Source: Candidatus Paceibacter sp. (lineage in GTDB: Bacteria; Patescibacteriota; Patescibacteriia; Magasanikbacterales; UBA922). From it: DNA of 64,000 nt. Positions 18,723 to 57,726 of the stretch are shown here, one piece after another; position 1 is the first letter of the stretch, and every line of letters begins with the position of its first letter. The stretch is taken from positions 1,504 to 65,503 of the forward strand of contig DYFM01000001.1 of the NCBI GenBank assembly GCA_020725175.1. Reading direction: 5' to 3'. A model generated the notes under the pieces. That model searched no databases and was not told where the DNA came from. It was given only the letters and a program-made list of their open reading frames with translations. The position numbers were made by a program, and so were the translations under genes.

Positions 18723-20824
18723 AGCGTCACATTGCTATTATTCTTCCCTGTTACAACGAAGAGAAAATCATTTCTCACTCTCTTCGTTCATTAACCGATT
18801 TTTTGGAAACGCAAATAGAACAACAGTGGACAATTGTGTGTGTTAATGATGGGAGTAGTGATACCACTGCGTCGAAGATTCGAGAATTTCAAAAAGAATA
18901 TCAAAATACTATTGTTACGGTACATTTCGTAGACAAAACTCATAATGAAGGAAAGGGGGCGGCTATTCAAGCGGGGGTAGAAGCGGTGAGGGCTGATTGG
19001 TATGGATATATGGATGCGGATGTATCGATTGACTTCCAGATTGCCCTACCAACGTTTGTTTCCGCAATGGATTCAAGTGATATGTTGATTGCGGAACGAA
19101 CTACCATGCAGAAAGAATACTCATGGTTTCGGAGATTGTCTTCACGGTTCATGACGTTTTTTCCGCGCTGGTTTTTTCGATTGTCATTTTCCGATCCGCA
19201 ATGTGGCTTCAAGTTCTTTCATCATTCTTTACTTCCATTGGTATCGGCAGTGCGGCAAAGTCGTTTTTCGTTTGATATAGAATTGTTGGTGCGAGTACAA
19301 ATGCAGGGAAAAAACATCAGGAGTATTCCGGTTACCTGGCAACATCGTACCGAAACGAGCGTTCGTCTGCGTGATGGCGTACGCTACCTCATAGATTTGT
19401 TTCCTATCATGGAGGTCGCCTATTCATGGCGGACGTTTTTGCGTTTGTATGTTCTCATGGCGTTTTTCATCACGATAATCGTGTATGGTTGGACAGTAGT
19501 CTACGGATATTTTTTTTCTGATGATTTTACGTGGTTGTGGCACGGGGCGAAGATTTTGCGTGGTGAAATAGGGATCATGGCACACATGTCCACGTTTTTC
19601 TCTCCGGTTATCAATGTGTTTTATACCCTTTTTTACACGTTGTTTTCCTATCATGCTTCGGTGTATTTTGGATTTGGTCTTTTGGTTCATGTGCTCACCG
19701 CAGTCATGGTGGGGGTGCTTACCCGGTACTTGAGTCGATCTCAGTTGGCCGGATTTATCGCAGTGGTATTGTTCTCTTTTGCTGGGAGCGCGTATGAACC
19801 GTTGGTATGGGTCGGGGCAAATATGCATAGTGTGGCAGCGATGTTTATTGTTTTGTCGGTACTATCGCTCGTTTTGTTTTTTGAGAAACCGAAAAGTAGA
19901 TTTTTGAGCCTTTTTACTACGGTACTGGCATTACTATTCGCACTTGGAACAAAAGAAATTGCTGTTGCGTTGCCACCAATATTATTGTATGTTTCTTGGT
20001 GGTATTTGCGTGATAAAAAGGTAAGACAAGAAACATGGAAACTATTTTTTGTGGCGATTATTGTATCGGCTGTTCCATTGTTTTGGTATGTCTATTCCCA
20101 ATATATCTGGCAAAAAAGTAGTGTTTGGGTGGGAAGCGGTGCTTTCTCTCTCTCAGTAGAGCGGTTGTATGGATTGCCGATAGTTCTTATGGATATGGTT
20201 TTTCCGTTAGCGCAGTTTTTACGATCTCATACCGCAATGTCGTATGCTCTTCTAGCGCTTGGGTTACTTGTTGCACTTTTATATCGATTTCGTCAGAATG
20301 CCACTGTCTGGTTTGGTTTTATTTGGGCGGTCATGGCTGTGATGCCGGTTTTATTTTTTAATCATCTACATTGGTGGGATGTTTTACCATCTCGGTACAC
20401 CTATACGGCTCGTATCGGTATTGTGATGATGATTGCTGTGATACTGGTGCAATTGTTGCAACAGGGAAAATATTTGCGACTCGTGCATCGTTTATTTTGG
20501 GTGATTCTTATCTTTATTCTATACAACACGATACATACCGCTCATATTATTTCCACCCAGTATGCATATGTGTATGAAACCGGTCGGGCACTAACAAAAG
20601 TAAGTGAAGAATTGGCTACTATACAGCCGGAGAAAGTTGTAGTAGAATGGTATAGACCGTTTGAAAAAAATGTTGCGCATATTATCGGTGCATTTGACGT
20701 TATCGCCGGTATTCCGGAGGATCGGGTAGAGTTTTTGGAAAAAGATGAATTGTATGAACCGAAAGAGGGTGAAGTGGTAGTACGGTGGAATGATGGAGAT
20801 ATGCGATATCATTTGTTGAGGTAG
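18719..20824 (+). CDS. Family-2 glycosyltransferase (DPM1-like) fused to a large multi-pass membrane domain
   Basis: N-terminus ILPCYNEE...VNDGSSDTT...DADVS (GT2 DxD region); C-terminal ~450 aa highly hydrophobic. Confidence 0.6.
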   Translation: MKRHIAIILPCYNEEKIISHSLRSLTDFLETQIEQQWTIVCVNDGSSDTTASKIREFQKEYQNTIVTVHFVDKTHNEGKGAAIQAGVEAVRADWYGYMDADVSIDFQIALPTFVSAMDSSDMLIAERTTMQKEYSWFRRLSSRFMTFFPRWFFRLSFSDPQCGFKFFHHSLLPLVSAVRQSRFSFDIELLVRVQMQGKNIRSIPVTWQHRTETSVRLRDGVRYLIDLFPIMEVAYSWRTFLRLYVLMAFFITIIVYGWTVVYGYFFSDDFTWLWHGAKILRGEIGIMAHMSTFFSPVINVFYTLFYTLFSYHASVYFGFGLLVHVLTAVMVGVLTRYLSRSQLAGFIAVVLFSFAGSAYEPLVWVGANMHSVAAMFIVLSVLSLVLFFEKPKSRFLSLFTTVLALLFALGTKEIAVALPPILLYVSWWYLRDKKVRQETWKLFFVAIIVSAVPLFWYVYSQYIWQKSSVWVGSGAFSLSVERLYGLPIVLMDMVFPLAQFLRSHTAMSYALLALGLLVALLYRFRQNATVWFGFIWAVMAVMPVLFFNHLHWWDVLPSRYTYTARIGIVMMIAVILVQLLQQGKYLRLVHRLFWVILIFILYNTIHTAHIISTQYAYVYETGRALTKVSEELATIQPEKVVVEWYRPFEKNVAHIIGAFDVIAGIPEDRVEFLEKDELYEPKEGEVVVRWNDGDMRYHLLR

Positions 20825-24971: not shown

Positions 24972-25940
24972 TTACTGTATTTCCAAGACAACAATCTCTG
25001 GTGGGTTAAATAATCTTGCTCTTACTCCTGATTCTCCAATACCGCTCGTAACAAAAACATGGAGATCTTCATATGTGTACCAGCCTTGGTACCAATTTTT
25101 GTTCGGAACATCTCCAATTCTACCAATAGGGCCAATGAAAGGGAGTCGTATTTGACCGCCGTGGGTGTGTCCGGATAGCATGAGGTCAATATCATGTTTG
25201 GCAACTTCTTGAGTGGCTGCCGGATTGTGGATGAGGGCAATGGTTGGGATGTTTTTGGTACGTTTTTCCAGTGAAGAAAAATCGAGTGTGCCGTTCCACC
25301 ATTCATCACCACCAAAAAGGTAGAATGATTCACCATTGACAGAAATCTCTTCAAGCTCATTGATGAGATACTGAACACCCAATTCTCGCATTACCTCGGC
25401 TGTGTGTTGGCTCCGGTCGGTAAATCGAAATGCCGGATTAGAAATTGATTTTCCACCTGGTATTCCGTACTCGTGATTTCCATGAACTGCGTAAGTGGGA
25501 ACTGTTGAAGCCAGTCGAGCGAGTGGAGTGAGGTAGATGGTTTCATCTTCCGTGGTATATGAATTATCAATGAGATCACCGATGATAAATACAATGTCTG
25601 GTTGTAGTGCAAGAATTCTGTCGACAGATTGGTCAACAAAGTCAGTTTTTTTGTATGGCCCAACCTGATAATCAGCTATCACTACTGCGCGAATAGGCTT
25701 GGAAATTTTTGGGAGATCAATTGTTTCAGGGTTAAGAACAATAATTCTCGGTTCGATAAAACTGCCATAGATGAGGGTGAGACTGGCAAGAGAAAAGAGA
25801 ATGGCAAACAGGCGGGAAAATGTTTTGTGCAATTCGTGCCAATTGGTTTTCTTTTTCCGCAGGTAGAATAAAACCACCGCCGGAAAAGCGGTGAGGATTA
25901 TTCCTAGCCAAATGACTATATCAAAGTGGAGAGGTGTCAT
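24972..25940 (-). CDS. Membrane-anchored calcineurin-like metallophosphoesterase
   Basis: N-terminal TM then ...AVVIADYQVGPY..., DIVFIIGDLID, GNHEY, GHTHGGQ metallophosphatase motifs; start set at ATG 25940 (MTPLHF...) because the longer ORF reads through the tRNA-Leu gene. Confidence 0.75.
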   Translation of the reverse strand: MTPLHFDIVIWLGIILTAFPAVVLFYLRKKKTNWHELHKTFSRLFAILFSLASLTLIYGSFIEPRIIVLNPETIDLPKISKPIRAVVIADYQVGPYKKTDFVDQSVDRILALQPDIVFIIGDLIDNSYTTEDETIYLTPLARLASTVPTYAVHGNHEYGIPGGKSISNPAFRFTDRSQHTAEVMRELGVQYLINELEEISVNGESFYLFGGDEWWNGTLDFSSLEKRTKNIPTIALIHNPAATQEVAKHDIDLMLSGHTHGGQIRLPFIGPIGRIGDVPNKNWYQGWYTYEDLHVFVTSGIGESGVRARLFNPPEIVVLEIQ

Positions 25941-25942
25941 AG

Positions 25943-26027
25943 TGCCGTCGGAGAGAATCGAACTCTCACTCTCGCAGGGAGAACGGGATTTTGAGTCCCG
26001 CGCGTCTACCAATTCCGCCACGACGGC
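25943..26027 (-). tRNA. tRNA-Leu (anticodon CAA), type II with long variable arm, no encoded CCA
   Basis: Minus-strand GCCGTCGTGGCGGAATTGGTAGACGCGCGGGACTCAAAATCCCG-TTCTCCCTGCGAGAGT-GAGAGTTCGATTCTCTCCGACGGCA folds as a cloverleaf: 7-bp acceptor, GG in D-loop, anticodon loop CTCAAAA, T-loop TTCGATT. Confidence 0.85.
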
Positions 26028-41218: not shown

Positions 41219-43196
41219 TCAACTAGTTGTTGATGAATATTTATTTTTTAACATTTTCACGAGTGCTTCGGCCGCATGTTTCGCTAGTTCTACTTTACTT
41301 ATGTTATTTTTTCTCAAATTATCATCTCCCAATGCTTCTATCATCGTGTAACAGACACCGGATGGCAGTTCTGATAAAAGCTGTCGCCAATATTTTTCAA
41401 CTGTACTACTATAACTTTCAGCAAAAAAGTTATTTCCAAAAGGAGTATTTGTCTTTTCTCCACTTATAAGAGTTACTCCATGCTGAGTAATTGTAGCTTT
41501 TGAATCATGTTTTTGAGTGCCGGAGTTTACAGCCCGTTCTGCTTTCTGGAAAATTTCAAACGCTGTTTGTTGATCTTCGATATTTACAATCGCACTGTCT
41601 GGGGTGTCATCAAGATTATCAAGTTGTGATAAGGTGCCTTTCTTGTGAAGTTCGGTGGCAATTCTTTTCGGAATAATAAAATTATTTGTGTAGAATACAT
41701 GATGCACTTTATGTTCTTGGGGATTTCCATCCTTATCAAAGGCAAACCGTGACATGTTTGGATCCATCACACGGGCATTTTTTTTGCCGGTTGTTATTGT
41801 TGTTCCTTGTATATTAGCAAACTCTTCCATCATTTTTGAGTCGGCATTTGACATGTTGCCATAGTCGCCGCGCTCTACAGGAATGGCGTACCATCCATCT
41901 TTTTTTTTTCCTCATATGAAACATATCACCGGCTACAATGCGTAAATCTACTATACTTCCGGCTTTTTTCATTCGAGTAAGTTGCTCAATCATTTCACCT
42001 TTTCCGGTGGAACTCTCTCCGGCAAATGCAAGGCCTATCCATTCTCCGCCTTTTTCTAACTGAATCTGCACACATGCTCCGTGAACAGGTAAAATAGTCT
42101 CGCCTTCCCGAAGGAGTGCTTCCGTATTCGCCATTTCGGAAATGCACTTTTTAGCGTAAGCGTGGTATCGGTGTCCTGGATCAGTATCCGTCGTCAACTT
42201 ATCAGATAAAAATCCGACATGTACTCGCTTTCCCCCTACAGGCTGGTGAGTGTAGTAGAATCTGTCATTTAAACTGTTTTCTGTAATCGTTTCGTGACTG
42301 ACTCCTAAGAAGAGAATATTGTCAAACGTCAGACCATGGAAATTTTTCGCCACCATAAATTGCTGCGAACAGGTGACAAGTTGTTCTAAAAACGTACGTT
42401 TATTAAAAATTGCTAGCGTATTTGTAACCCCAGTTCTAAGCGGTAAAGCAAGATAATCCCCCGGAACAATGGAGTCAAGTAGGGCTTTTATTTCCGGTTT
42501 ATGTTCTTCATATTTAAATCTCCCTTTTCGTTTGTTCGAGTCGGTTGTAAATATAATTTGGTTGATGAGTGGAATAACATCTGTTACGACCGGAACTTCT
42601 CTCACTATTGTGTCCAATTTTTCGTCTCCTGTTTGTATTCGTTCTTTATCTTGATCGTTAAAATGACTATACTCAATGACAAACTCATGGGTTGGATCAA
42701 GAAAAACCGATTTGTTTTCAAAGTGGAAAGGGTTTTTTTTTGTTCCTACTGCCTGTTCTATTGCACCAAACATTTGATAGAGTGACTGTTTGAGAGTGCG
42801 AAACTTTTCAATATTCTTTGTAGTTGCTTGTTCTGTGTCTTGACTTTTCATTATTCCGTAACGAATAGAGAAGGTGGTCCAGTGATTGAATAGACTCTGC
42901 AAATCTTGTCGCAATTTTGTACGATCAACCCATCGAGGTACATTTTTATTATGTATAATATCTTGTAAAATAGGCAAATTAAGTACTAAAGGTTCATAGT
43001 TTTTTTTCCACCGAGAAAAAATAGCCTTAAATTGATTACTTCCCACAATTTCTTGGGGAGATTGACACAGTTCTTCTTCGGGAGTATCTATTGGTTCTCT
43101 TGTTGGTACCGTATCGGCTGCGGTTGCTAATGCATCTTGAGATGTGATGGGTTTGTTATATTCTGGCGCTATTCCATCATTTGTTATTATGCTCAT
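41219..43196 (-). pseudogene. ~660-aa P-loop protein (resembles the PEP-carboxykinase / HprK kinase fold) split into 460-aa and 211-aa ORFs by a +1 frameshift at a poly-A10 tract (plus-strand T10 at 41890-41899)
   Basis: Deleting one A fuses the frames: ...GDMFHMRKKK|DGWYAIPVERGDYGNMSNADSK.... Motifs GLAFAGESSTGKGE, IVAGDMFHM..DGW and VHHVFYTNNFIIP parallel PEPCK GLSGTGKT / LIGDDEHGW / VSYPIYHIDNIV, from memory. Confidence 0.5.
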
Positions 43197-45620: not shown

Positions 45621-48149
45621 ATGTCACCAGGAGATACGGAATATCGTATACATTCGTTTATTCCTGATACGAATGTTTCAAAGGAACAAGAAAACAGAGA
45701 AAGAAGAGTGTCACGATCTTTTGTGACACAATCTTTGCGTTCTGAGGTAATAGAGCCGCACCTTAAGAAGTTATTGGAAACTCATCCGGAGCAAGATGTG
45801 ATTGATGTGTTGGTTGATACTGATTTGACTTCAGTTATGCTGATAGAAAAAGGCTTTGAATCTGTTAATGCCGGGCAGGTGATGCCAACAGGAGGAGAGG
45901 CGGATCAGGGGGAGGATTTTGAGACAGCCGCTTTACGACGGAAGTTTGAAGAAACGCATTTACGGCCGGTAGAAGGAAAGAGACTTGGGAAAATGACTTA
46001 TACATTGAAACATCCATCAAAAGGTGATCGAGATTTACGTGTGCAGTATTTTTCTTTTCATATTTTACCAACCGATGTTTCGTATGCCCATGACCCAGAA
46101 GGAGATAAGATCGGCGGAGTAGTACGACTTACTATTGAGCAGGCTATAGAGCTACTTCAAAAGAATAAACTTTCTTCAAAACAAATATTTTTACTAGAAG
46201 CAGAAACTGGATACGAATCTGCCGAAGAGGTAGCATTGTTGGATAGTTTGCGAACAGTTCGTGAGGATGAAAATGATATAGTAAAGAATGTTAAGCCACA
46301 TGAAGTGGAGCAAATTCAAATTTCTTTCTTACTAGATATTGTTAAAAAAGAAACTGAAAAAAAGAAATCATTGTTACGACAAATTTTGGCAATAAATTCT
46401 TCAAAATTTAGTACTGATGAGATAGAAGAATTGAATACGAAGATAGATCAAAGCAAAGATCAGGTGCAAACACGTAAATGCCTGCGAGAAATACTGGAAA
46501 GCCTGCAGAAAAAGGGATTGTCAAATGAAGATGTTTTTAATACTTATATAGCTGCTATTGATCTGAGTAACTTTGAAGAAGAAGTTGCAGACAAACACGC
46601 TGGTCTTTCAAAGATAGAAGCCCTGTCCCGGTTTATGTTTACCCTGTTAGAAACACGGTATGATTTTGATACTTATATTTCTATCGCAGAAAAGAATCCT
46701 TTTTTAAAGGAATTTATCGGAAAGTTGAGAAATTTTGCTGCCGCAGTAGAAAAGACTGCAAAAAGAAATGGATTAACAGGTAAAAGCCTTCCTCTCTCAG
46801 CTCAACTTGCTTATATTCATGAGTTAGGCGATGGACAGTTAGAAGTACTTTTTATGGACCACTTTTTTTTGACAGATCATGAGCGCGAGGGTGTAGAGCA
46901 ACTGCCTCGAAAAGTGAAAGCGTCTCAGAAACAGGCTCATGATTTTTTTCGGCAGGTAAAGTTGGAGGTGAACAAATTTAATCAAAGTATTGTGCAGAGT
47001 ATACGTCCAGAGTCTGGAGTGACGCACAATGTAAAATTGTTGGAACAGATGCATGAGGTGGAAGAAGCATCGGTAGCAAATCTTATTCGATTAAGTTTTT
47101 CAAATACCTTACCACCAGACGTGTTAAGGAGGTTTGTTCCTAAAGGCAAAAGAAAGACCAATGAAGAAAGAGAAAAAATTAAACATTTAATAAAACGTTA
47201 TAAATTTGAATGTCGAAGAAAACTGATGGACATGTATTTATTTTATGAGCCAAATGAATTTTTTCGGCAGGTACAAACTGAGAATCGTCCGGTGCAAAAC
47301 CAGGTTTGGAATAAAATTTCCAGTTTTCCAATATACCAAATATTTGTGCGACTTGAAAAAGATGGTACTGATCTGCGAGCAGTAGAGGTACTAGATTCTG
47401 ATGTAAATCCTGAGGAAAGCAAGAATATTTTAGTGGTTGATGTACGCGCATACAAAACTGATCGAGGCTTTTATTATGTTCACCAAAATGGACTTCCGAA
47501 AGAAATTGAATCATTTATGAGAAAGCTAATGGTAAGAGGGTATGATAATTATGAACAGGTTGAAGATATTCATCGTCGGGCAATTGTGCTTTTTGGCGGT
47601 GAGAATGAAGAAACGAGGCAGCGTTTGCATGAAAGAGAAAACGTCGTCTTTTCAGTGAGCGAATTAGATCCGCAAATTGTAAAAGACAAGACAGCCTCGG
47701 AACAAGAGGTGGAAGACGTGGCTGCAGTTTTTGATATTATTCGTGCTTTGAAAAAAATTCCGGGCGTAAAAATAAAAAACTATCGACCTACCAACAAGCC
47801 TGGAGAAACATATAAAAGTAAAAGTGTCGGTGGTGGTGGAAAAGTAGTGTTTGCGAAGTTGTATATTGAGTACACACCTCCTGGCGAAGTAAAGACATAT
47901 CATGAAGAGGTGATGCTTTTTTCTCCCACACCAAAAGAGGGGGGGTTTTCGGAGCAATCAGCCTATTTTTGGTTTGAATTCAAAAAAGCCGATGACAAAA
48001 AGTACGCTTTTTCTCGACTTCTTTCCACTAAGTCACTGCGCTCATTTATTGACCTTCGATATCCGCCACAGATATATGGAAAGCCGGTTCGGCAAGTTGT
48101 TGGAAGATTTATAGAAACACAGAAGCAAAAGAGAAAGGGAAAAGATTAA
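45621..48149 (+). CDS. Large hypothetical protein (842 aa), likely co-transcribed with recG
   Basis: Starts 8 nt after the recG stop; long uninterrupted ORF with coiled-coil-like segments; no motif I can assign. Confidence 0.5.
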   Translation: MSPGDTEYRIHSFIPDTNVSKEQENRERRVSRSFVTQSLRSEVIEPHLKKLLETHPEQDVIDVLVDTDLTSVMLIEKGFESVNAGQVMPTGGEADQGEDFETAALRRKFEETHLRPVEGKRLGKMTYTLKHPSKGDRDLRVQYFSFHILPTDVSYAHDPEGDKIGGVVRLTIEQAIELLQKNKLSSKQIFLLEAETGYESAEEVALLDSLRTVREDENDIVKNVKPHEVEQIQISFLLDIVKKETEKKKSLLRQILAINSSKFSTDEIEELNTKIDQSKDQVQTRKCLREILESLQKKGLSNEDVFNTYIAAIDLSNFEEEVADKHAGLSKIEALSRFMFTLLETRYDFDTYISIAEKNPFLKEFIGKLRNFAAAVEKTAKRNGLTGKSLPLSAQLAYIHELGDGQLEVLFMDHFFLTDHEREGVEQLPRKVKASQKQAHDFFRQVKLEVNKFNQSIVQSIRPESGVTHNVKLLEQMHEVEEASVANLIRLSFSNTLPPDVLRRFVPKGKRKTNEEREKIKHLIKRYKFECRRKLMDMYLFYEPNEFFRQVQTENRPVQNQVWNKISSFPIYQIFVRLEKDGTDLRAVEVLDSDVNPEESKNILVVDVRAYKTDRGFYYVHQNGLPKEIESFMRKLMVRGYDNYEQVEDIHRRAIVLFGGENEETRQRLHERENVVFSVSELDPQIVKDKTASEQEVEDVAAVFDIIRALKKIPGVKIKNYRPTNKPGETYKSKSVGGGGKVVFAKLYIEYTPPGEVKTYHEEVMLFSPTPKEGGFSEQSAYFWFEFKKADDKKYAFSRLLSTKSLRSFIDLRYPPQIYGKPVRQVVGRFIETQKQKRKGKD

Positions 48150-48193: not shown

Positions 48194-49624
48194 ATGCCAT
48201 CATCAATTCCTCTCACCCTCACCTACGACGATGTTCTTCTCGTGCCAAAACGCACACCGCTTGCGTCCCGATCGGAAGCAGATATTCGTAGTCGCTTTAC
48301 GAAACATATTTGGCTGAACACTCCTTTCGTCAGTGCCAATATGGCAACCGTGACGGAACATAAAACCGCCATTGCTTTGGCACGAGAAGGTGGACTTGGG
48401 ACTATTCATCAGTTCGGCACCATCGCTGAGCAAGTGCAAGAAGTAAGGCGAGTAAAACGCAGTACCAGTTATGTGGTGGAAGATCCGGTAACTATTCATG
48501 TCTGGGCTACGCTTAAAGAAGCCAGAGATCTCATGGAACAAAAAGAAGTAACCAGTCTCATAGTCATGAGTGGGGAAGATTTGGTAGGGCTTCTTACGCA
48601 TCGAGATTATACCTTTGAGACCGATGGGAATCGATTAATTCGAGAACTCATGACCCCGCGAGAGCGACTTATTACCGCTGATTACGGTATCACGCAAGAC
48701 GCGGCGAAAGATATTTTTCGTACCTACAAAGTGGAAAAGTTACCGCTACTCGAACAGGGAAAACTGCGTGGACTTATTACTACAAAAGATATCAAGCGAA
48801 TGGAACACTGGCCATTGGCATCCCGAGACGCGAAAGGACGGCTCATGGTGGCCGGGGCGGTGGGGGTAAAAGATTCACTGGAGCGAACCGAAGCATTGAT
48901 TCGAGCCGGGGTGGACGTTATTGTCATGGACATTGCCCACGCGCATTCTGATCTCATGATCAAACAACTTCGTGAAGTAAAATCTAGTTTTTCTATTGAT
49001 GTAATGGTTGGAAACATTGCTACTGCCGCGGCAGCTCATGACCTTGTTGAGGCTGGGGCTGATGGGCTAAAAGTAGGAATTGGACCTTCGCCAGTGTGTA
49101 CCACCAGAATTATGTCAGGCGCTGGCTATCCACAGCTGAGTGCTGTTATGAATGTGGTGTCGGTTGCTAAAGAACATGATGTGCCGGTAACGGCCGATGG
49201 TGGAATGAAATATCCGGGTGATGTAGTAAAAGCTATTGCCGCCGGAGCGAGTAGTATTTTTTCCGGTTCTTTTTTTGCCGGTACAGATGAGGCTCCCGGT
49301 ATTATTATCATGAAAGACGGAAAACGCTATAAACGCTACGCTGGCAGTGCATCATACGAAAGTGGACATGCGAGAAAAGAGCGTGATGAAGGGCGACAGC
49401 TCAAAGAAAATATCGATGTTTTTGTGGAAGGGGTTTCGGTATTGGTTGATTATAAAGGCTCAGTTTCTGATGTTGTGCGGGGATTGAAAAAGGGACTGCA
49501 AAGTGGAATAAGTTACTGTGGTGGAAGAAATATCGAGGAAATGCAAACGAACGCGGAGTTTATCCAAATTACGTCTAGTGGATGGGTAGAGTCGGGTTCA
49601 AGAGGGATGAAGGTGATGGAGTGA
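48194..49624 (+). CDS. guaB: Inosine-5'-monophosphate dehydrogenase (with CBS pair)
   Basis: 476 aa; ...LKVGIGPSPVCTTRIMSGAGYPQLSAV... (catalytic Cys loop), tandem CBS region 48470-48800, GGMKYPGDVVKAIAAGAS. Confidence 0.9.
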   Translation: MPSSIPLTLTYDDVLLVPKRTPLASRSEADIRSRFTKHIWLNTPFVSANMATVTEHKTAIALAREGGLGTIHQFGTIAEQVQEVRRVKRSTSYVVEDPVTIHVWATLKEARDLMEQKEVTSLIVMSGEDLVGLLTHRDYTFETDGNRLIRELMTPRERLITADYGITQDAAKDIFRTYKVEKLPLLEQGKLRGLITTKDIKRMEHWPLASRDAKGRLMVAGAVGVKDSLERTEALIRAGVDVIVMDIAHAHSDLMIKQLREVKSSFSIDVMVGNIATAAAAHDLVEAGADGLKVGIGPSPVCTTRIMSGAGYPQLSAVMNVVSVAKEHDVPVTADGGMKYPGDVVKAIAAGASSIFSGSFFAGTDEAPGIIIMKDGKRYKRYAGSASYESGHARKERDEGRQLKENIDVFVEGVSVLVDYKGSVSDVVRGLKKGLQSGISYCGGRNIEEMQTNAEFIQITSSGWVESGSRGMKVME

Positions 49625-51190: not shown

Positions 51191-53107
51191 TTATAATTTA
51201 CTCCCAATTGGACATTGGGTAATATTCTTTGGTCCTGCAAATTCAGTCACTCCGAGGGATCGAATTTTCACAACAATCTTTTGAACATATCCTTTTGATG
51301 CACCGTTGAATATTTTCTTTCCAGCATAGGTGCTTCCTTCTGGCCAAAGACCATCAGGCCACTGGTTGGTATTACAGCTAAAACGATTGATTGCCGCTCC
51401 AAGTGCACCTGGTCCGCTACTGTGCCCAAAGTATAACATGAATACCTTATCATCTAGTGAGGAATTAGGACATTTTTTATTAATTTTCTGAAAGCTAGCT
51501 TGTGTAACAAGAATGCCGTAAGCGCTATTGACCTCCGGGTTTTTTAACCCGTCACGAGTGGAGCAGTGTTGGGCAAGATCGACTTTTGCAAGCACGGGTC
51601 GACATTGCCATCCACCTGTTTTTTTACCGATTTTTGGAAATCCCCACATTGCTTGAAACAAACCGGTTGCGCTAGACTTCGGATTTTCTGCATTTGGGTT
51701 GAGGGCTGATTCGTGGTGTGCCATAGCTTTCAGTAATTGCCAATTTATTCCAATACAGGCTGCAAATTTTTGGAATAATTGATCAAATTCTGTTGTTCCA
51801 AAAGGTTTTCCTCCTCCAGTATACGCACTCGCATCAAATTCACCTTTTTCCTCAGCATAAAAATCCATATTGTCGAGAGACTTTCCTTGTATATATTGAA
51901 TTTTGAGATTGCGAAATTGAACCAAATTGGGATTGAGTGTGTAGAGTATGGTATAGGACAAAATGGCAAAAAATAATCCGATAATAGCGCCTGCAATTTT
52001 TTTCTTGGCCGAGCTAATACTGTCACTACTACTCCCAGATATCATCCATTGAAAGCCACCAAAAATAATCATGATAATTGATATGATTCCAGCAGCAGCA
52101 ATGGCGTATCGGTAGAGCGCGAGTATGTAGTCACCGATAAAGGGGAGATAAGCATAGAATCCTCCGTCTACGTCACCTTCTTCAGGTATATAAACACCAC
52201 CAAATTGTAAACCAGGAACAATTATCTGGGGCTGTGGACATTTGATCTGTGGTTTTGTTTCAGAGGTATATTCCTGTGTATCAAATACCGCATCAATCAT
52301 ACTGCCGGTTTTTGGGTCTTGATCCGAGCAAGGGAAATAACCGGTGGGGATGGGGGTAACGGTACTGGCAGGTGACTGTTGACCGAGCGTTGAGGCGTCA
52401 AATCCAGCGGAATCTGGTCCTGGGGTATATCCACCATAGGCTTGTTGCATAAGAAGCGCAAACATAACCTCTTGCCCTGTTTTGTTTAGGTGAAGATGGT
52501 CGCCAGAATCAAACTGACTATCTATGGTATCATCGTTATCTTTATCAACGTTACTATAGACATCAATGTAACTATCAATACCATAAGGTTTTCCGGCGAG
52601 CCAGGCATTATTGGCTTTGATGTTGTCTCCCCATGTTTGTGTCCAGCTATTATATCCCTTAAATGGTTGTGCCCCCATGATAATTATTTTGCTTCCTTCC
52701 GATTTTGCAGACTGTATAATCGTTGTAAGATTTTTTTGTGTATTTTGGAGACCAGTTGTGTTATTAAGCCCGTTTAGGCCGCCGTAAAGTATAATTTCAC
52801 TGAATCCTTTTCCTTTTACTTTAGTATTGTACTGATCCAGAAAAAATGATGAGCTGGATCCTGATTTTGCAAAACATTCAAACGCTTTGTCCGGAAGTGC
52901 TTTTTTGAGTTTTTCCACAAAACCTCCTGAACTACATCCACCAACAAAACTTGATGACCCGATGACGGCGGTTTTGGTGGTGGCACGAACAGTATTTGGG
53001 AAATACGCAATGAATAATAGAAAAAGAAATATATATATAACTTTGTTTTTTTTTCCACGCTGAATAGATCTAATAAATTGGAATAGCTCTTCTAAATTTT
53101 TTTTCAT
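51191..53107 (-). CDS. Multidomain envelope protein: SGNH/GDSL-like hydrolase + two-helix membrane hairpin domain + soluble lytic transglycosylase (SLT) domain
   Basis: VIGSSSF (GDS block) and DSGDHLHLN (DxxH); hairpin domain LALYRYAIAAAGIISIIMIIFGGFQWM...LSYTILYTLNPNLVQFRNLK; SLT motif MAHHESALNPNAENPKSSATGLFQAM. Confidence 0.6.
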   Translation of the reverse strand: MKKNLEELFQFIRSIQRGKKNKVIYIFLFLLFIAYFPNTVRATTKTAVIGSSSFVGGCSSGGFVEKLKKALPDKAFECFAKSGSSSSFFLDQYNTKVKGKGFSEIILYGGLNGLNNTTGLQNTQKNLTTIIQSAKSEGSKIIIMGAQPFKGYNSWTQTWGDNIKANNAWLAGKPYGIDSYIDVYSNVDKDNDDTIDSQFDSGDHLHLNKTGQEVMFALLMQQAYGGYTPGPDSAGFDASTLGQQSPASTVTPIPTGYFPCSDQDPKTGSMIDAVFDTQEYTSETKPQIKCPQPQIIVPGLQFGGVYIPEEGDVDGGFYAYLPFIGDYILALYRYAIAAAGIISIIMIIFGGFQWMISGSSSDSISSAKKKIAGAIIGLFFAILSYTILYTLNPNLVQFRNLKIQYIQGKSLDNMDFYAEEKGEFDASAYTGGGKPFGTTEFDQLFQKFAACIGINWQLLKAMAHHESALNPNAENPKSSATGLFQAMWGFPKIGKKTGGWQCRPVLAKVDLAQHCSTRDGLKNPEVNSAYGILVTQASFQKINKKCPNSSLDDKVFMLYFGHSSGPGALGAAINRFSCNTNQWPDGLWPEGSTYAGKKIFNGASKGYVQKIVVKIRSLGVTEFAGPKNITQCPIGSKL

Positions 53108-53113
53108 AGAAAA

Positions 53114-54403
53114 TTATTCAAGACTCGGATCCCAACTACACTGACCTTTAGGATTATGTTGTGAAAGGTTAAAAGAAGTACCCATATATTTTCCGAGTTT
53201 GTTGAGTTTAAAATTTGGTGGATCATGGTGAGTGCCAAGTTCACAATGTCCTCGTACTGTAGTATCATTAATTGGAAAATTATATTTTTTACTCAATGCA
53301 ACAATGAGTTTTGCAATATTTTGGTACTGTTCTTCCGTATAAAAATAACCTTCAGAGTTTTTTTGATAATTTATATCAATCCCAATCGAGATTTTATTTT
53401 CACTACAACAGTGATTCATAACATGTAATTCATCTGCTAGTTGATATACTTCACCACTCGGAACAGCCGCATAATGTGAGCCAATTGGCACCTGATTGAC
53501 TGTTAATGGAAGACGATAAATTTTTTTAGTTGCCTTATCTTTTTTTGCTTTACCTAACTTGTAGTCATTGGCCCACATACTAATCATTCCTGATACGTTT
53601 TCTTTTGGGAATCCGAGGTGTAATATGACCATTTTTACATCAGAAGGAGGTCTTTTCGCATTTTTTGTTCTGGATGAAATATTGCAATCAAGTTGTCCTA
53701 GAAATTTTTTATTCGTATCAAATCCGGTTAAATTGCTAGGTGAGGAGGGTACAGGTACAGAACAATTTCTTGGGGGTTGAATGGTTCCATCGGGTCCTAT
53801 TATATTTGGTCCTGAATCAGAAGCAACATCATTAACATGACTATATGCTTCATCTGGTATTGGTTCAGCCTGCACATACAACACTTTCAAATTACGAAAC
53901 TTTACCAAATTTGGATTAATGGTAAAAAGAAAAAGATATGATCCAACAGCCAATAAAATACCGATGAGGGCGTGTTCGATCCGGGTTTTGGCTTTTGTGA
54001 TATTGTCGCTATTACCGGCACTTGTTACCCATTGAAAACCAGCTATTATAATCATAATAACTGACACAATCCCAATCGCCGCAATCACAAATCGGTAGAT
54101 GGCCGCGATATATTCACCGGCATAGGGAATTGAAATGTACTTGTTTCCTTCATCATCTTCGGTTGTTAAGTTTTCAACATTTGCTTCGGTAAATTTTTCG
54201 AGTCCTGGCAGCTTGATACGAAGCTGTGGCTGTTGTAGCATTGCATTGAGTTCACTTTCGGTTAATGGTTCGGAACCGGTAAACGCGTCACCTATCGCGT
54301 TCCCTGGGCCGTATTGGGCAAGTGCTGGGGAAGAATACAAAAAACAGATCGTGATGAGCGTCAAGACAATTACTCGAAAATGTTTATGAAAGAAAGGCAA
54401 CAT
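53114..54403 (-). CDS. Signal peptide + same two-helix membrane hairpin domain + N-acetylmuramoyl-L-alanine amidase (Amidase_2/PGRP-like) domain
   Basis: AAIYRFVIAAIGIVSVIMIIIAGFQWV...GSYLFLFTINPNLVKFRNLK is a paralog of the hairpin in 51191-53107; C-terminus ...ILHLGFP...ISIGIDIN...TVRGHCEL... amidase_2-like. Confidence 0.55.
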   Translation of the reverse strand: MLPFFHKHFRVIVLTLITICFLYSSPALAQYGPGNAIGDAFTGSEPLTESELNAMLQQPQLRIKLPGLEKFTEANVENLTTEDDEGNKYISIPYAGEYIAAIYRFVIAAIGIVSVIMIIIAGFQWVTSAGNSDNITKAKTRIEHALIGILLAVGSYLFLFTINPNLVKFRNLKVLYVQAEPIPDEAYSHVNDVASDSGPNIIGPDGTIQPPRNCSVPVPSSPSNLTGFDTNKKFLGQLDCNISSRTKNAKRPPSDVKMVILHLGFPKENVSGMISMWANDYKLGKAKKDKATKKIYRLPLTVNQVPIGSHYAAVPSGEVYQLADELHVMNHCCSENKISIGIDINYQKNSEGYFYTEEQYQNIAKLIVALSKKYNFPINDTTVRGHCELGTHHDPPNFKLNKLGKYMGTSFNLSQHNPKGQCSWDPSLE

Positions 54404-54406
54404 AGG

Positions 54407-55051
54407 TTATAACCCAAGAACAGTTTTCCAGCCGGCAAGTGACTGCGGAGGAGTGATTTGTTTGTTGTCTATAAAAATTGCCGGTACCGCTTGAACGTTG
54501 ACAGACATGGCAAGTGCTTCGGTATTTACAATATGTGTTTCTGTAGCGACATTATTGAGACACGTGGTTAGAAGTTCTTGATCCAGTTCTATTTGCGTGG
54601 CAATTTCTTGAAGCATTGTATCGGACAAGGATTCGTTGTTCGCGTACGCAAAATCCTTGAAGGTGACAAATTTTCCTTGGAGATTGGCACAGTAGGCGTA
54701 TTGGTGAGCAAGGCGGGCATTATGTGGAAAACGTGCCACTGGAAGTCCTTTCCAGATTACCTTGATTTTACCAGGATATTCTCGTTCTATTTCTGATAAG
54801 AAATAATCTTGTTGTTTACATCCTTCACAACTAAAATCTTCAAACACAACAATTGTTTTAGCGGCTGCTTTGTTTCCGATAATCGGATCGCCTGGAAGAA
54901 TCGGGAGTAGTGTTGGGGTTTCTGAAGTTTGTTCTTCTTCTGGTAGTTTAGGGAAGAGGGGACGATATTGTACCACTTCAATAAAAAGTGCCAGTCCCGC
55001 AATAAGAATGGCCGGAATAAAGATGGTGAGGATGTGTTTTGTGTTCAGCAT
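54407..55051 (-). CDS. Membrane-anchored DsbA-like thiol:disulfide oxidoreductase
   Basis: N-terminal TM, thioredoxin-fold with CEGC active site (FSCEGCKQQ). Confidence 0.65.
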   Translation of the reverse strand: MLNTKHILTIFIPAILIAGLALFIEVVQYRPLFPKLPEEEQTSETPTLLPILPGDPIIGNKAAAKTIVVFEDFSCEGCKQQDYFLSEIEREYPGKIKVIWKGLPVARFPHNARLAHQYAYCANLQGKFVTFKDFAYANNESLSDTMLQEIATQIELDQELLTTCLNNVATETHIVNTEALAMSVNVQAVPAIFIDNKQITPPQSLAGWKTVLGL

Positions 55052-55071: not shown

Positions 55072-56319
55072 TTAGAGCGGTATAGAAAAAATACCCGGTA
55101 CATTGACATCGGTGTAAAATAGAGTTTTACCGTCATCACTTAGAAACATGGATTGAACGGTCGGCGGAGTCTCTACCGGGATTTCGGTTTTTAGTCCGGT
55201 CTGGGTATCAATTTTCATAATTGAATCTTGGGTCGTGTTTCCGAGTCCTGGTTGAAATCCCGCACCAGCCGGAAGGTTTTGCGGCACACCACAGTACACA
55301 TATCGATCATCAGTTCCAAATCCGCATTTATTGGCCCAGGTGTTTACTTCAAGCAGTTTTCTACCGGTACCAATTTGATCTCCAGAAGCATTGACGACCC
55401 AGAGAGTTGGGTTGAAATTTGTTTGGTTACTAAAAGCACTGTAGAGAAGTTTTTCTCCGGTTGGTGACCATGCGGTAGTCAGGCCTCGTCCTTCAACGAT
55501 AGTTGATTTGAAGTTTTCTTTGTTTTGTCCAATAAAAAGGAGTTCTTGTCGATATGCGCCCAGTGGTTCACCAGTGAGAGCCATGCCAACTATTTGTTTA
55601 TTTGGTGACCAGTCAATGATTACTTGATCAGCATTTTCTCCAAGCGGTTCAATCAGAGAAATGTTGTTTCCGGTTGGATCTGAGGTGATGAGCCAGCGAT
55701 TTTCCGGAGAAAATCCCAGGCTTTTGGCAGCGATTTTGTCCGATTGTGGAGAGAAAGAAAAGTTTTCCCAGTGTTTTGGTAGGGTAACTTGTTCTTTGGA
55801 GTCAAAATTGTAGTAAATGTTGGAGCCATCCGGATACTCTATGATTGTTTCATTTTTTTCTGGTGACCATACGACATTTGCTACATTAAAAAATGTTTGT
55901 TCGCTTAAGAGTTCGAGACTTCCGTCGGGTAAAAGACGATAAAATTTTCCATCTTGTTTATTGTAAAATTTGGCTGCACCCAGAGTGTCTTTGGTGGCAG
56001 CGAGTACCGGTACATCAATGAGCTGTACGCTGGCTGGAAGGACGAAGCTGGGTTCAGATGAACCAGGTTGTTGGGTTGTTGGGGGGGTGGTTCCGGGAGT
56101 TTGACCGGGAGTTGGGAGAGAACCTGGTTGGTCAGTGACACTGCCGCGTGTGCCACCTTGACCTGCTTCAGGAAATCCGTCAGTGGGAAGTGGTTGCCCA
56201 TCTGGACCAACCGGTCGAGGAGTGGGCTTGGGGGCAAAAAATACCATCCAAAGAAGAATACCGAGAATGATGGTGACAATGAGGAACCCGATGGCGAAAA
56301 GGAGGCGACGTTTGTCCAT
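55072..56319 (-). CDS. Membrane-anchored TolB-like beta-propeller protein with Pro/Gly/Thr-rich linker
   Basis: N-terminal TM; PD40-like repeats (VVWSPEKNETIIEYPDGS, IDWSPNKQIVGMAL, TAWSPTGEKLLYSA, LSDDGKTLFYTD). Confidence 0.55.
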   Translation of the reverse strand: MDKRRLLFAIGFLIVTIILGILLWMVFFAPKPTPRPVGPDGQPLPTDGFPEAGQGGTRGSVTDQPGSLPTPGQTPGTTPPTTQQPGSSEPSFVLPASVQLIDVPVLAATKDTLGAAKFYNKQDGKFYRLLPDGSLELLSEQTFFNVANVVWSPEKNETIIEYPDGSNIYYNFDSKEQVTLPKHWENFSFSPQSDKIAAKSLGFSPENRWLITSDPTGNNISLIEPLGENADQVIIDWSPNKQIVGMALTGEPLGAYRQELLFIGQNKENFKSTIVEGRGLTTAWSPTGEKLLYSAFSNQTNFNPTLWVVNASGDQIGTGRKLLEVNTWANKCGFGTDDRYVYCGVPQNLPAGAGFQPGLGNTTQDSIMKIDTQTGLKTEIPVETPPTVQSMFLSDDGKTLFYTDVNVPGIFSIPL

Positions 56320-56340: not shown

Positions 56341-57363
56341 TTATGCTGAACGAAGTTGGTTTAATCGTTGTGATATTCCCGCTATTTTTTGTTGAGTTTG
56401 TCCTAATTGAGCGGTAAGTTGTGGGATGCCATACTCTTGTTGGAGCTGTGCTATTCTAGCGGACAGCTCGTCTTGTAATCTCGTAATTTTGGATTTCAGT
56501 CGAGCTTTTTGAAAACGAAGTCTTCCGGCCATGGCAAATAAAAATCCGGCGCCTCCGGTAAGAATGAGAATGATAATAGGGATAATGGTAATGATTGAGA
56601 AAATTACTATTATCATGATTCCATAGAAAGCAAGATTAACTAATTTCAGACTAAACTTTAGTTGGGAAATTTGTTTGCGTAGACCCGACACTCTTTCGTC
56701 TTTATCGAGTCGATTTTTTGCCTGATTAAGTTGTTGAATTGTTTGTCGTTCTTCTTGCTGGAGTGCCGCGGCTTGCGTTTGAAGGGTTTGGACTTGTTGT
56801 TGGATGCTTTCTGAATCAGGAGGTGATTGGTCTGGTTGTGTTTCCGGTGGTTGTGTTTCATCAATATCGTTATTTGGTTGTTTGGTAGTATCTTCAGGTA
56901 GTTCGTTTTCCGGAGGAGATTGATCAAACGGTTGATATGGAGGTTGTTCTGTTGGTTCTCCTTGTTCCCCTTGTTGTTCCTCAGTGGTAGCCGATTTGTT
57001 TTGAGGAGTCGGTTCGTTTTTCGGTTGGGTTGATGATGGATTTTTTTCCTCTAGAGCATCATTGATTCTGTTTCGGGTGGACGGTTGCTCTGCAGCCGGG
57101 TTGTCAAACGCTTGACTCGGTTGAGACAGTGTTTCGTCGAGAGCGGACGTATCGGCGAAACTATCGAGGACTTCTTTGTTGGTAAAATTATCAACAGCAT
57201 TTTGAGCTGCGTCAGTAACGGCATCTTCCATGGTTGCTGCCGCTTCAGCGGCTGCCTGCTGTAATTCTTCTTCATTACTTACCGATCCAGGCCCTCCGGC
57301 AAAATTGAGAAACGCAGCCATGAGCGCGCCGGTTAATTTGCTGTGAAGTCCTGGTATGTTCAT
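56341..57363 (-). CDS. Acidic Pro/Gln-rich protein with one TM helix and C-terminal coiled coil
   Basis: Low-complexity acidic region, TM IMIIVIFSIITIIPIIILILTGGAGFLF, then heptad-like Q/L-rich tail; ATG 57363 preferred over TTG 57369. Confidence 0.4.
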   Translation of the reverse strand: MNIPGLHSKLTGALMAAFLNFAGGPGSVSNEEELQQAAAEAAATMEDAVTDAAQNAVDNFTNKEVLDSFADTSALDETLSQPSQAFDNPAAEQPSTRNRINDALEEKNPSSTQPKNEPTPQNKSATTEEQQGEQGEPTEQPPYQPFDQSPPENELPEDTTKQPNNDIDETQPPETQPDQSPPDSESIQQQVQTLQTQAAALQQEERQTIQQLNQAKNRLDKDERVSGLRKQISQLKFSLKLVNLAFYGIMIIVIFSIITIIPIIILILTGGAGFLFAMAGRLRFQKARLKSKITRLQDELSARIAQLQQEYGIPQLTAQLGQTQQKIAGISQRLNQLRSA

Positions 57364-57372
57364 ACGCAAACA

Positions 57373-57726
57373 TTAGCGCGATTGAGAAAAAGCAACTACG
57401 AGTCTGGCGCATTCAGTATAGTACATTTTCGTTTCTTTCTCAATATCCTTGGCAGTCAGTTTTCCTTGTTGTTTGAGGAGTGTCAGTGAAATGACACATA
57501 GTCGGGCTCGCAGATCAACCATTCTGTTGAGACGTCGTTCGGTGTCTGAGGTTTGTTGTTTGTCGTGTGCTTGCAAAAGTTGTGTTTTTTGAAATTGTAT
57601 TTCTTCAAGAATATTTTTTTGCTCCTCGTGTAACGTAAAACCGGCCTTGGAAAAGCGGCGGCCTTTTTGGGTGCGGAGTGCTGCTGCCCATTGTTGTTCT
57701 TGATCTGGGAGAGGTGAGACAGGCAT
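57373..57726 (-). CDS. Hypothetical helical protein
   Basis: 117-aa ORF between the clpC-like gene and the coiled-coil protein; no motif. Confidence 0.4.
   Translation of the reverse strand: MPVSPLPDQEQQWAAALRTQKGRRFSKAGFTLHEEQKNILEEIQFQKTQLLQAHDKQQTSDTERRLNRMVDLRARLCVISLTLLKQQGKLTAKDIEKETKMYYTECARLVVAFSQSR

Follow-up and report, generated by a model that had tools for sequence, protein, structure and literature searches.

Patescibacteria are epibionts, and a type IV secretion system (T4SS) together with pilins of the Pfam family PF18895 is essential for their growth on hosts (PMC10633639). VirB2-like pilins of Patescibacteria are identified by means of PF18895; in a survey of 3,035 genomes most of those with VirB2-like pilins lacked a recognizable VirB1 (PMC12102498). 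Six PF18895 pilins are encoded within the essential T4SS locus of S. epibionticum, and these pilins and the peptidoglycan hydrolases encoded by separate genes next to virB4 are all essential; two of the hydrolases, SEML1_0006 and SEML1_0007, lie directly past virB4 and are required for epibiotic growth (PMC10633639 supplement). In Gram-positive conjugation systems PrgK (pCF10), TraG (pIP501) and CwlT (ICEBs1) each carry two or more wall-degrading domains, and these proteins are needed for T4SS function (PMC12102498). The sole genetically tractable Patescibacterium cannot grow as an epibiont without its T4SS, and whether this system builds a pilus is debated. In this study we analyzed 64,000 nucleotides of contig DYFM01000001.1 from Candidatus Paceibacter sp.; this whole stretch is called the window, and positions below refer to it. 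Two adjacent genes, A and B, were found to encode different wall hydrolases fused to one conserved, pilin-like membrane hairpin. We propose, and give the proposal an even chance, that A and B open the wall for a Patescibacterial T4SS, as membrane-tethered equivalents of VirB1. Such hairpin-hydrolase fusions would be candidates for the missing VirB1-type wall-opening function.

Domain architecture of A and B

The window has a GC content of about 41%, is rich in core genes and resembles a Patescibacterial (Candidate Phyla Radiation) chromosome. Open reading frames (ORFs) were taken from a program-made list, and the segment shared by A and B was defined by BLASTP of one protein against the other. 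Both ORFs are on the minus strand, with a spacing of 6 nt. The features of the two proteins are as follows, with the evidence for each in brackets.

51191-53107, minus strand: ORF A, 638 aa; signal or anchor segment, SGNH esterase, pilin-like hairpin module and SLT domain (ORF list, Pfam, homologues)
52982-53107, minus strand: A residues 1-42; basic N-terminus (RGKKNK) and hydrophobic residues 22-42, a Sec signal peptide or signal anchor (hydropathy, sequence)
52448-52984, minus strand: A residues 42-220; SGNH/GDSL hydrolase with GSSS50, GGLNG109 and DHLH203 (Pfam, PDB sequence matches, motifs)
51875-52264, minus strand: A residues 282-411; conserved module (BLASTP against B, PF18895, alignment, AlphaFold2)
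51359-51790, minus strand: A residues 440-583; SLT lytic transglycosylase with HES465 and GLFQ482 (Pfam, alignment with locus L058)
53114-54403, minus strand: ORF B, 429 aa; signal peptide, pilin-like hairpin module and Amidase_2 domain (ORF list, Pfam, Foldseek)
54317-54403, minus strand: B residues 1-29; signal peptide ending SSPALA, with QY after the predicted cleavage site (hydropathy, sequence)
53858-54256, minus strand: B residues 50-182; conserved module with transmembrane helix (TM) 1 at 97-130, loop TKAKTR, TM2 at 142-167 and NPNLVKFRNLK (Pfam, BLASTP, alignment, hydropathy)
53219-53641, minus strand: B residues 255-395; Amidase_2, an N-acetylmuramoyl-L-alanine amidase (Pfam, invariant residues, Foldseek)

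The Pfam gathering scores (GA) used here are 26.6 bits for PF18895, 21.3 for SLT, 32.9 for Lipase_GDSL_2 and 26 for Amidase_2. Lipase_GDSL_2 matched A 60-213 with 32.4 bits (E=1.7e-7), just under its GA, and the SGNH blocks of A (GSSS, GGLNG and DxxH) align with those of the PDB entries TesA (4jgg) and SGNH (9kr0). The SLT match to A 444-573 exceeds its threshold at 30.9 bits, and the catalytic-Glu motif is present. Amidase_2 was found on B 255-395 with 48.1 bits (E=1.9e-12), and the same putative Zn ligands (H262, H386 and D394) are present in all 19 homologues compared. An AlphaFold2 model of B (mean predicted local distance difference test score, pLDDT, 75.8) was matched by Foldseek to Amidase_2 endolysins, T7 lysozyme, AmpD and peptidoglycan recognition proteins; LysC was the best match (E=5e-5, TM-score on target 0.74), and PlyL was also among them. 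The A-type architecture was found in the homologues P0002-P0004.

Hydropathy scans gave three hydrophobic segments in each protein (22-42, 327-359 and 370-392 in A; 9-30, 97-130 and 142-167 in B). The N-terminus of A is possibly cut after VRA, as judged from its sequence. There are 10 Cys residues in A and six in mature B, none of them inside the hairpin. The original prediction, made from the letters of the window without database searches, had placed two adjacent proteins with a paralogous module here; its ORFs were exact and its motif string was reproduced. Its assignment of an SGNH esterase and an SLT domain to the first protein, and of a signal peptide and Amidase_2 to the second, agrees with Pfam, motifs and hydropathy.

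The shared hairpin module

The only significant BLASTP segment joins A 282-411 with B 50-182 (45% identity over 133 aa, E=3e-34), and outside this module of about 130 aa the two proteins share no sequence. In A the module runs from PxPxIxVPGLxF and YxxLPFxGxY through TM1 (327-359), a K-rich loop (SAKKK) and TM2 (370-392) to NPNLVQFRNLK. In an alignment of 24 modules the elements follow one another in the same way: PxPxIxIPGLxF, an acidic stretch that varies, YLxIPFLGEYIAAxYKY running up to TM1, a loop of the form SGG...AKKRI, TM2, and SYxxLYTINPxLVxFxxLK. A search with the hairpin alone matched the T4SS_pilin family PF18895. The isolated hairpin of A scored 29.7 bits, above GA, and the full-length protein 25.5 bits (A 330-390); the values for B 99-153 were 24.5 and 21.0 bits, both below GA, and all four E-values fall between 7e-7 and 4e-4. 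PF18895 was present (E<1e-3) in 72 of the 88 closest relatives. The layout of a PF18895 pilin, a signal peptide followed by two transmembrane helices with a short basic loop, was found in both A and B by hydropathy and AlphaFold2. The hairpin of B also weakly matches the NCBIfam model of a "pilin-like conjugal transfer protein" of Mycoplasma integrative and conjugative elements.

The AlphaFold2 model of the module consists of helices 41-75 and 80-110 with pLDDT above 90. Short strands flank the hairpin on either side in this model and in that of B, and to judge from the models they may clasp its two outer ends together. In the B family mean pairwise identity is 44% for the hairpin vs. 46% for the amidase domain, and across lineages the module retains 40-50% identity. 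From these sequence comparisons, conservation of the module appears to exceed what a generic anchor needs. Relatives with several hairpins match both PF18895 and the TrbC/VirB2 family PF04956 well over threshold (PF04956 at 99-145 bits), which provides a transitive link from the module to VirB2. By sequence, the hairpin module appears to belong with the Patescibacterial pilin-like family, and its tie to classical VirB2/TrbC is indirect. Further hairpin genes had been thought worth looking for; neither a third module copy nor any other pilin-like ORF was found in the window.

Distribution of hairpin-enzyme fusions

When the 126-aa module was searched exhaustively with phmmer, 1.84 billion cluster representatives (50%-identity clusters) gave 20,121 matches at E<=1e-3, of which 3,947 reach E<=1e-10. 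Nearly all of the best 150 of these 3,947 are fusions of 300-1,100 aa in which the position of the module varies. Relatives with a single module have at least 100 aa past it in 167 of 172 cases and at least 100 aa ahead of it in 105 of 172. A Pfam census of the best 88 matches detected SLT (12 relatives), Amidase_2 (10), Peptidase_C39_2, VanY and M15_4 (seven each), GDSL_2, NlpC/P60 and M23 (five each), M15 (three), CHAP (two) and GH18 (one), with other domains in a few. One relative carries the JGI label "Type IV secretion system pilin/Transglycosylase SLT domain". We found no description of pilin-hydrolase fusions in Patescibacteria in the literature. The fusion had been called unusual, and this does not hold: as far as sequence searches can tell, it is widespread in Patescibacteria and unusual only relative to model organisms.

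This is a large and strongly conserved subfamily of "pilins" fused to wall hydrolases, with some members in T4SS clusters of several lineages, and counting PF18895 matches as pilus subunits overestimates the number of true pilins. Some of the relatives may be described as poly-pilins. P0055 (1147 aa), P0153 (966 aa), P0067 (822 aa), P0041 and P0043 (about 610 aa) and P0038 (325 aa) each contain 3-11 tandem VirB2-like hairpins in one polypeptide; P0055 reaches 264 bits with PF18895 and 145 bits with PF04956, up to 11 PF18895 stretches occur in one protein, and P0041 ends in a C-terminal SLT domain. Covalently chained hairpins are hard to reconcile with one-by-one polymerization into a pilus.

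Gene block and synteny

Genes X, Y, DsbA, B, A and RadA all run in one direction, 3-56 nt apart, with a tight spacing of 3-21 nt from X to A, and ClpC lies upstream. The features upstream of B are:

54407-55051, minus strand: DsbA/Thioredoxin_4-like, membrane-anchored protein with CxxC, 3 nt upstream of B (Pfam, synteny)
55072-56319, minus strand: Y; N-terminal TM anchor, Pro-rich linker and beta-propeller (weak PD40/propeller Pfam matches)
56341-57369, minus strand: X; acidic, Q/P-rich low-complexity N-terminal half and coiled coils flanking a hydrophobic segment (about 45 aa) (sequence)
57415-57443, minus strand: best sigma-70-like site upstream of X, TTGAGA-17-TATACT (promoter scan; the number of such sites is not above shuffle expectation)

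Related loci were collected by a search with a 7-sequence alignment. Among 80 loci from GTDB representative genomes, the order ClpC-X-Y-DsbA-[1-4 hairpin enzymes]-RadA-RecG is kept in 35, and the same order was seen in Magasanikbacteria, Uhrbacteria and other metagenome-assembled genomes. The DsbA-like gene is co-conserved with the hairpin-enzyme slot. Within the slot the type of enzyme varies by genome while the hairpin scaffold stays constant: Pfam found GDSL_2 (10), VanY (8), SLT (7), C39_2 (6), Amidase_2 (5), M15 (4), M15_4 (3), Metallophos and M23 (2 each), Exo_endo_phos and C70 (1 each) among 57 slot proteins.

X opens the co-directional block. No Pfam family matched it, its conservation is poor (three of 87 related loci have a homologue), and it occupies the position of the hairpin protein that precedes Y in sister lineages. 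X was considered as a degenerate pilin and rejected, the similarity being not significant (pairwise E=0.02 over the hydrophobic stretch; E=0.23 with a hidden Markov model of the module). Judged by its position, the sigma-70-like site is a possible promoter for X-Y-DsbA-B-A.

Some further observations were made on the slot and its genomes. One slot (L022, 4012-11791) holds four tandem hairpin-enzyme genes. A few slot proteins join the scaffold to non-wall domains (Metallophos twice, Exo_endo_phos, FGE-sulfatase). Many loci (L008, L015, L020-L023, L028, L030 and others) are titled "uncultured Gammaproteobacteria bacterium" despite synteny and hairpin proteins of the Patescibacterial type, and one protein name reads "Kapabacteria"; such organism names seem to be placeholders or wrong assignments.

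Possible link to type IV secretion

The evidence for a role in secretion comes from sister lineages. VirB4 was present within 10 kb in 25 of 87 loci, 11 of which also have Y. Loci L052 and L058 share the order PrgI, TraC-like gene, VirB4, hairpin-X, Y, hairpin-SLT, which in L058 is followed by RadA and RecG. In L064, L071, L072, L082 and L087 hairpin genes and Y lie past VirB4 (hairpin-SLT was confirmed in L064), and in L007 a hairpin-SLT gene is found two genes past VirB4, near dnaA. Fused and small pilin genes stand side by side past VirB4 in sister lineages. A and the hairpin-SLT protein of L058 are colinear over hairpin and SLT (E=2e-17), and both genes precede RadA. It has been reported that T4SS loci of the ABY1 class often include recG and radA (PMC12102498).

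Y is co-conserved with hairpin proteins both at the ClpC-RadA locus and inside the PrgI-TraC-like-VirB4 clusters. Its homologues in L052 (8610-9869; phmmer E=3e-81) and L058 (8234-9499; 4e-77) each lie between two hairpin genes past VirB4, and others are at 11412-12593 in L064 and 8529-9662 in L087. Y may be an unrecognized T4SS-associated component.

In six of six MPF_T plasmid records (L089-L094) virB1, encoding a lytic transglycosylase with SLT, is followed by virB2 and virB3 in that order. This adjacency, together with the separate essential hydrolases and pilins of S. epibionticum, makes the fusion a Rosetta-stone indication that pilin-like subunits and hydrolases act together. The original prediction had tied wall opening to a membrane assembly. 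Synteny with PrgI, the TraC-like gene and VirB4 in sister lineages supports that idea, and the window itself contains no T4SS gene; the link was demonstrated in relatives only, and for this genome it is predicted from them.

Proposed mechanism

A and B are best described as putative Sec-exported peptidoglycan hydrolases that the module of about 125 aa would hold on the outside of the cytoplasmic membrane. From the basic N-terminus, the three hydrophobic segments, the K/R-rich loop, Sec export and the positive-inside rule we infer a topology in which the inter-helix loop is cytoplasmic and both flanks, with all enzyme domains, are outside. The SGNH esterase and SLT domain of A would then sit together on the wall side, as would the Zn amidase of B. 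O-acetyl groups on C6 of N-acetylmuramic acid (MurNAc) block lytic transglycosylases, and de-O-acetylation is needed before these enzymes can cleave. Going by domain families and intact motifs, A is predicted to strip an ester, most plausibly the O-acetyl on MurNAc, and then to cut the glycan strands; B is predicted to strip the stem peptides. The pilin-like hairpin would retain the enzymes in the membrane, among or beside the pilin-like subunits and the assembly platform, which would confine wall opening to the points where the secretion machine emerges. The role as wall opener of a T4SS we infer from synteny in relatives, with the Y propeller protein as a likely partner. All Cys residues of mature A and B fall in the ectodomains, which fits the DsbA-like gene 3 nt upstream; its product probably oxidizes these Cys-rich domains.

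Alternative explanations

A number of results weigh against the proposed T4SS role. PF04956 gave no significant match to the hairpin of A (E=0.29) or to B (E=0.074, falling on the signal peptide), and an hhalign comparison of the module profile with six annotated plasmid VirB2/TrbC proteins reached a probability of 20% (E=1e-3), with the turn in register. The fold comparison gave little information: Foldseek found no significant match, and no pilin, for the AlphaFold2 module in the PDB, nor did the module sequence profile match anything meaningful there. The likeness to VirB2/TrbC that had been predicted for the hairpin is upheld by PF18895 and by the multi-hairpin relatives, and direct similarity to PF04956 is not. 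For PF18895 itself the pilin role was deduced from homology and essentiality, no pilus having been observed, and no member of the family is known to polymerize into an extracellular pilus. VirB4, PrgI, a TraC-like gene and small pilins were all missing from the window, and among the 35 syntenic loci, 33 had no VirB4 gene at a distance of up to 10 kb. The cargo includes ordinary wall-turnover types (VanY/M15 carboxypeptidases) as well as the non-wall Metallophos and Exo_endo_phos.

Several of these points fit housekeeping autolysins of a monoderm cell without an outer membrane, in which a domesticated pilin fold would be a mere membrane anchor and the enzymes would serve growth, division or cell separation independently of a T4SS. 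We regard this as a serious but rather unlikely explanation. It agrees with the scarcity of VirB4 at syntenic loci and with the neighbors of A and B in the window, which are housekeeping genes (ClpC, RadA, RecG, IMPDH, LytR, Mur ligase) with no T4SS gene among them. It is also favored by the very large size of the family and by a cargo that spans the full repertoire (amidase, lytic transglycosylase, DD/LD-peptidases, M23, NlpC/P60, CHAP); moreover, no protein with a tandem array of 2-11 hairpins can be a simple extractable pilin. However, the hairpin and its flanking motifs are as conserved as the catalytic domain, which is atypical for an anchor, and the enzyme is swapped within one syntenic slot, whereas housekeeping enzymes are usually stable orthologues. 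An autolysin would also leave unaccounted for the embedding of Y and a colinear hairpin-SLT gene in T4SS clusters of sister lineages. The variable C-terminal enzymes on a constant module, in 1-4 tandem copies, are reminiscent of polymorphic toxin and effector families, and the hairpin could be a T4SS trafficking or docking module with swappable enzymatic heads, a reading that we hold to be improbable. A similarly slight probability is given to such armed pilins being extracted from the membrane and shown on a pilus, a tip or a contact site, or being passed to the host surface, where they would attack the envelope of the host bacterium. The nuclease/phosphoesterase-type domains found beside the wall hydrolases and the epibiotic lifestyle, with its essential T4SS and PF18895 pilins (PMC10633639), speak for these two readings. 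They are opposed by the absence of an immunity-like small gene past A or B (the 6-nt gap between B and A is followed by RadA), by the lack of T4SS genes in the window and by the tandem-hairpin relatives, which favor residence in the membrane. The termini of VirB2-type pilins point outward in F/T-pilus structures, which would suit display of the enzymes, but the hairpin of A is preceded by about 280 aa and followed by about 245 aa, so that for steric reasons A would be hard to fit into a VirB2-type filament other than at its end or as a rare subunit. If A and B were armed pilins they would be host-directed weapons or feeding tools and not self-wall enzymes, and enzymes directed at the host would be the first effector family proposed for a Patescibacterial T4SS. 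A prophage or phage lysis cassette, with the two-TM hairpin as holin or signal-anchor-release element on endolysins, is suggested by matches of Amidase_2 and SLT to phage endolysin and transglycosylase PHROGs and by the phage endolysins that are structurally nearest to the amidase of B. Yet the PHROG matches are confined to the enzyme domains, with none meaningful for X and Y; the endolysin-like fold is common to all Amidase_2 enzymes; and the hairpin matches a pilin family, not holins. The pair has no flanking phage genes and lies in core-gene synteny across dozens of Patescibacterial genomes, and by this synteny and genomic context a lysis cassette is effectively ruled out.

Other features of the window

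Two overlapping orphan ORFs of 211 aa (41219-41854, minus strand) and 460 aa (41814-43196, minus strand) are located between tRNA-Arg and RecG. No Pfam family was found for either, and no homologue in 87 related loci; the 460-aa ORF has a P-loop-like motif, GESSTGKGE. The pair looks like a lineage-specific insertion or one frameshift-split gene. RadA and RecG, neighbors in most relatives, are separated here by genes for an 842-aa protein (45621-48149, plus strand) and IMPDH (48194-49624, plus strand). Only an N-terminal NUDIX domain is recognizable in the 842-aa protein, which has homologues in three of 87 loci. The gene of a 588-aa protein (16956-18722, plus strand) with a weak AftA_C match and no significant Pfam family runs by 4 nt into the start of the gene for a 701-aa family 2 glycosyltransferase (GT2; 18719-20824, plus strand), and the two may form an envelope glycan module. 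A 349-aa ORF with a GTG start (24972-26021, minus strand) overlaps tRNA-Leu (25942-26027, minus strand) by 80 nt, and translation probably begins further downstream.

All 2-kb bins across positions 1-64000 show positive GC skew, and the cumulative skew rises monotonically, which places the window on one replichore, with no origin or terminus. Genes are mostly on the plus strand from 1 to 28 kb and mostly on the minus strand from 28 to 60 kb.

Comparison with known systems

PF18895 pilins such as SEML1_0014-0019 of S. epibionticum have in common with A and B the two-helix hairpin, a basic loop of the SGG...AKK type, an N-terminal export signal and a match to the same hidden Markov model, which for A and B exceeds GA in the isolated hairpin of A only. 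The canonical pilins are about 100-190 aa long, with little beyond the hairpin, whereas A (638 aa) and B (429 aa) carry enzymes on one or both sides of it. Canonical pilins diverge fast within their arrays, to about 25% identity (PMC12102498), in contrast to the 40-50% seen for hairpins of the A/B type. A and B have additional conserved motifs, PxPxIxIPGLxF before and NPxLVxFxxLK after the hairpin. Pilins of this family are expected in or near a T4SS cluster with VirB4; A and B have no VirB4, PrgI or TraC-like gene in the window.

VirB1 of MPF_T systems resembles A in its SLT domain with E-S and GLxQ motifs, and hairpin-SLT relatives of A occur in VirB4 clusters. Unlike VirB1, which is soluble, resides in the periplasm and is not joined to the pilin, A has its SLT domain covalently joined to the hairpin and to an SGNH esterase, and it adjoins no T4SS gene in the window. 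PrgK, TraG and CwlT are comparable to A and B as proteins of the monoderm type with a membrane anchor or signal and wall-degrading domains. They have a single N-terminal TM or a lipobox, with SLT/muramidase and CHAP/LytM/NlpC domains, whereas A and B have an internal VirB2-like hairpin and their activities, with SGNH and Amidase_2 represented, are split over two paralogous genes.

By description, SEML1_0006 (two lysozyme-like domains and a cysteine proteinase) and SEML1_0007 (M15B/M23-like) contain the enzyme classes that are found as cargo in the hairpin family. No PF18895 domain is listed for them in the tables of PMC10633639, pilins and hydrolases being separate proteins, in contrast to A and B. 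The closest solved relatives of the SGNH domain of A by sequence are generic esterases, for example TesA. SGNH O-acetylpeptidoglycan esterases of the Ape1 type work, as the domains of A would, in one pathway with a lytic transglycosylase. Esterase and transglycosylase are separate periplasmic proteins in Neisseria and other diderms, whereas A fuses the two.

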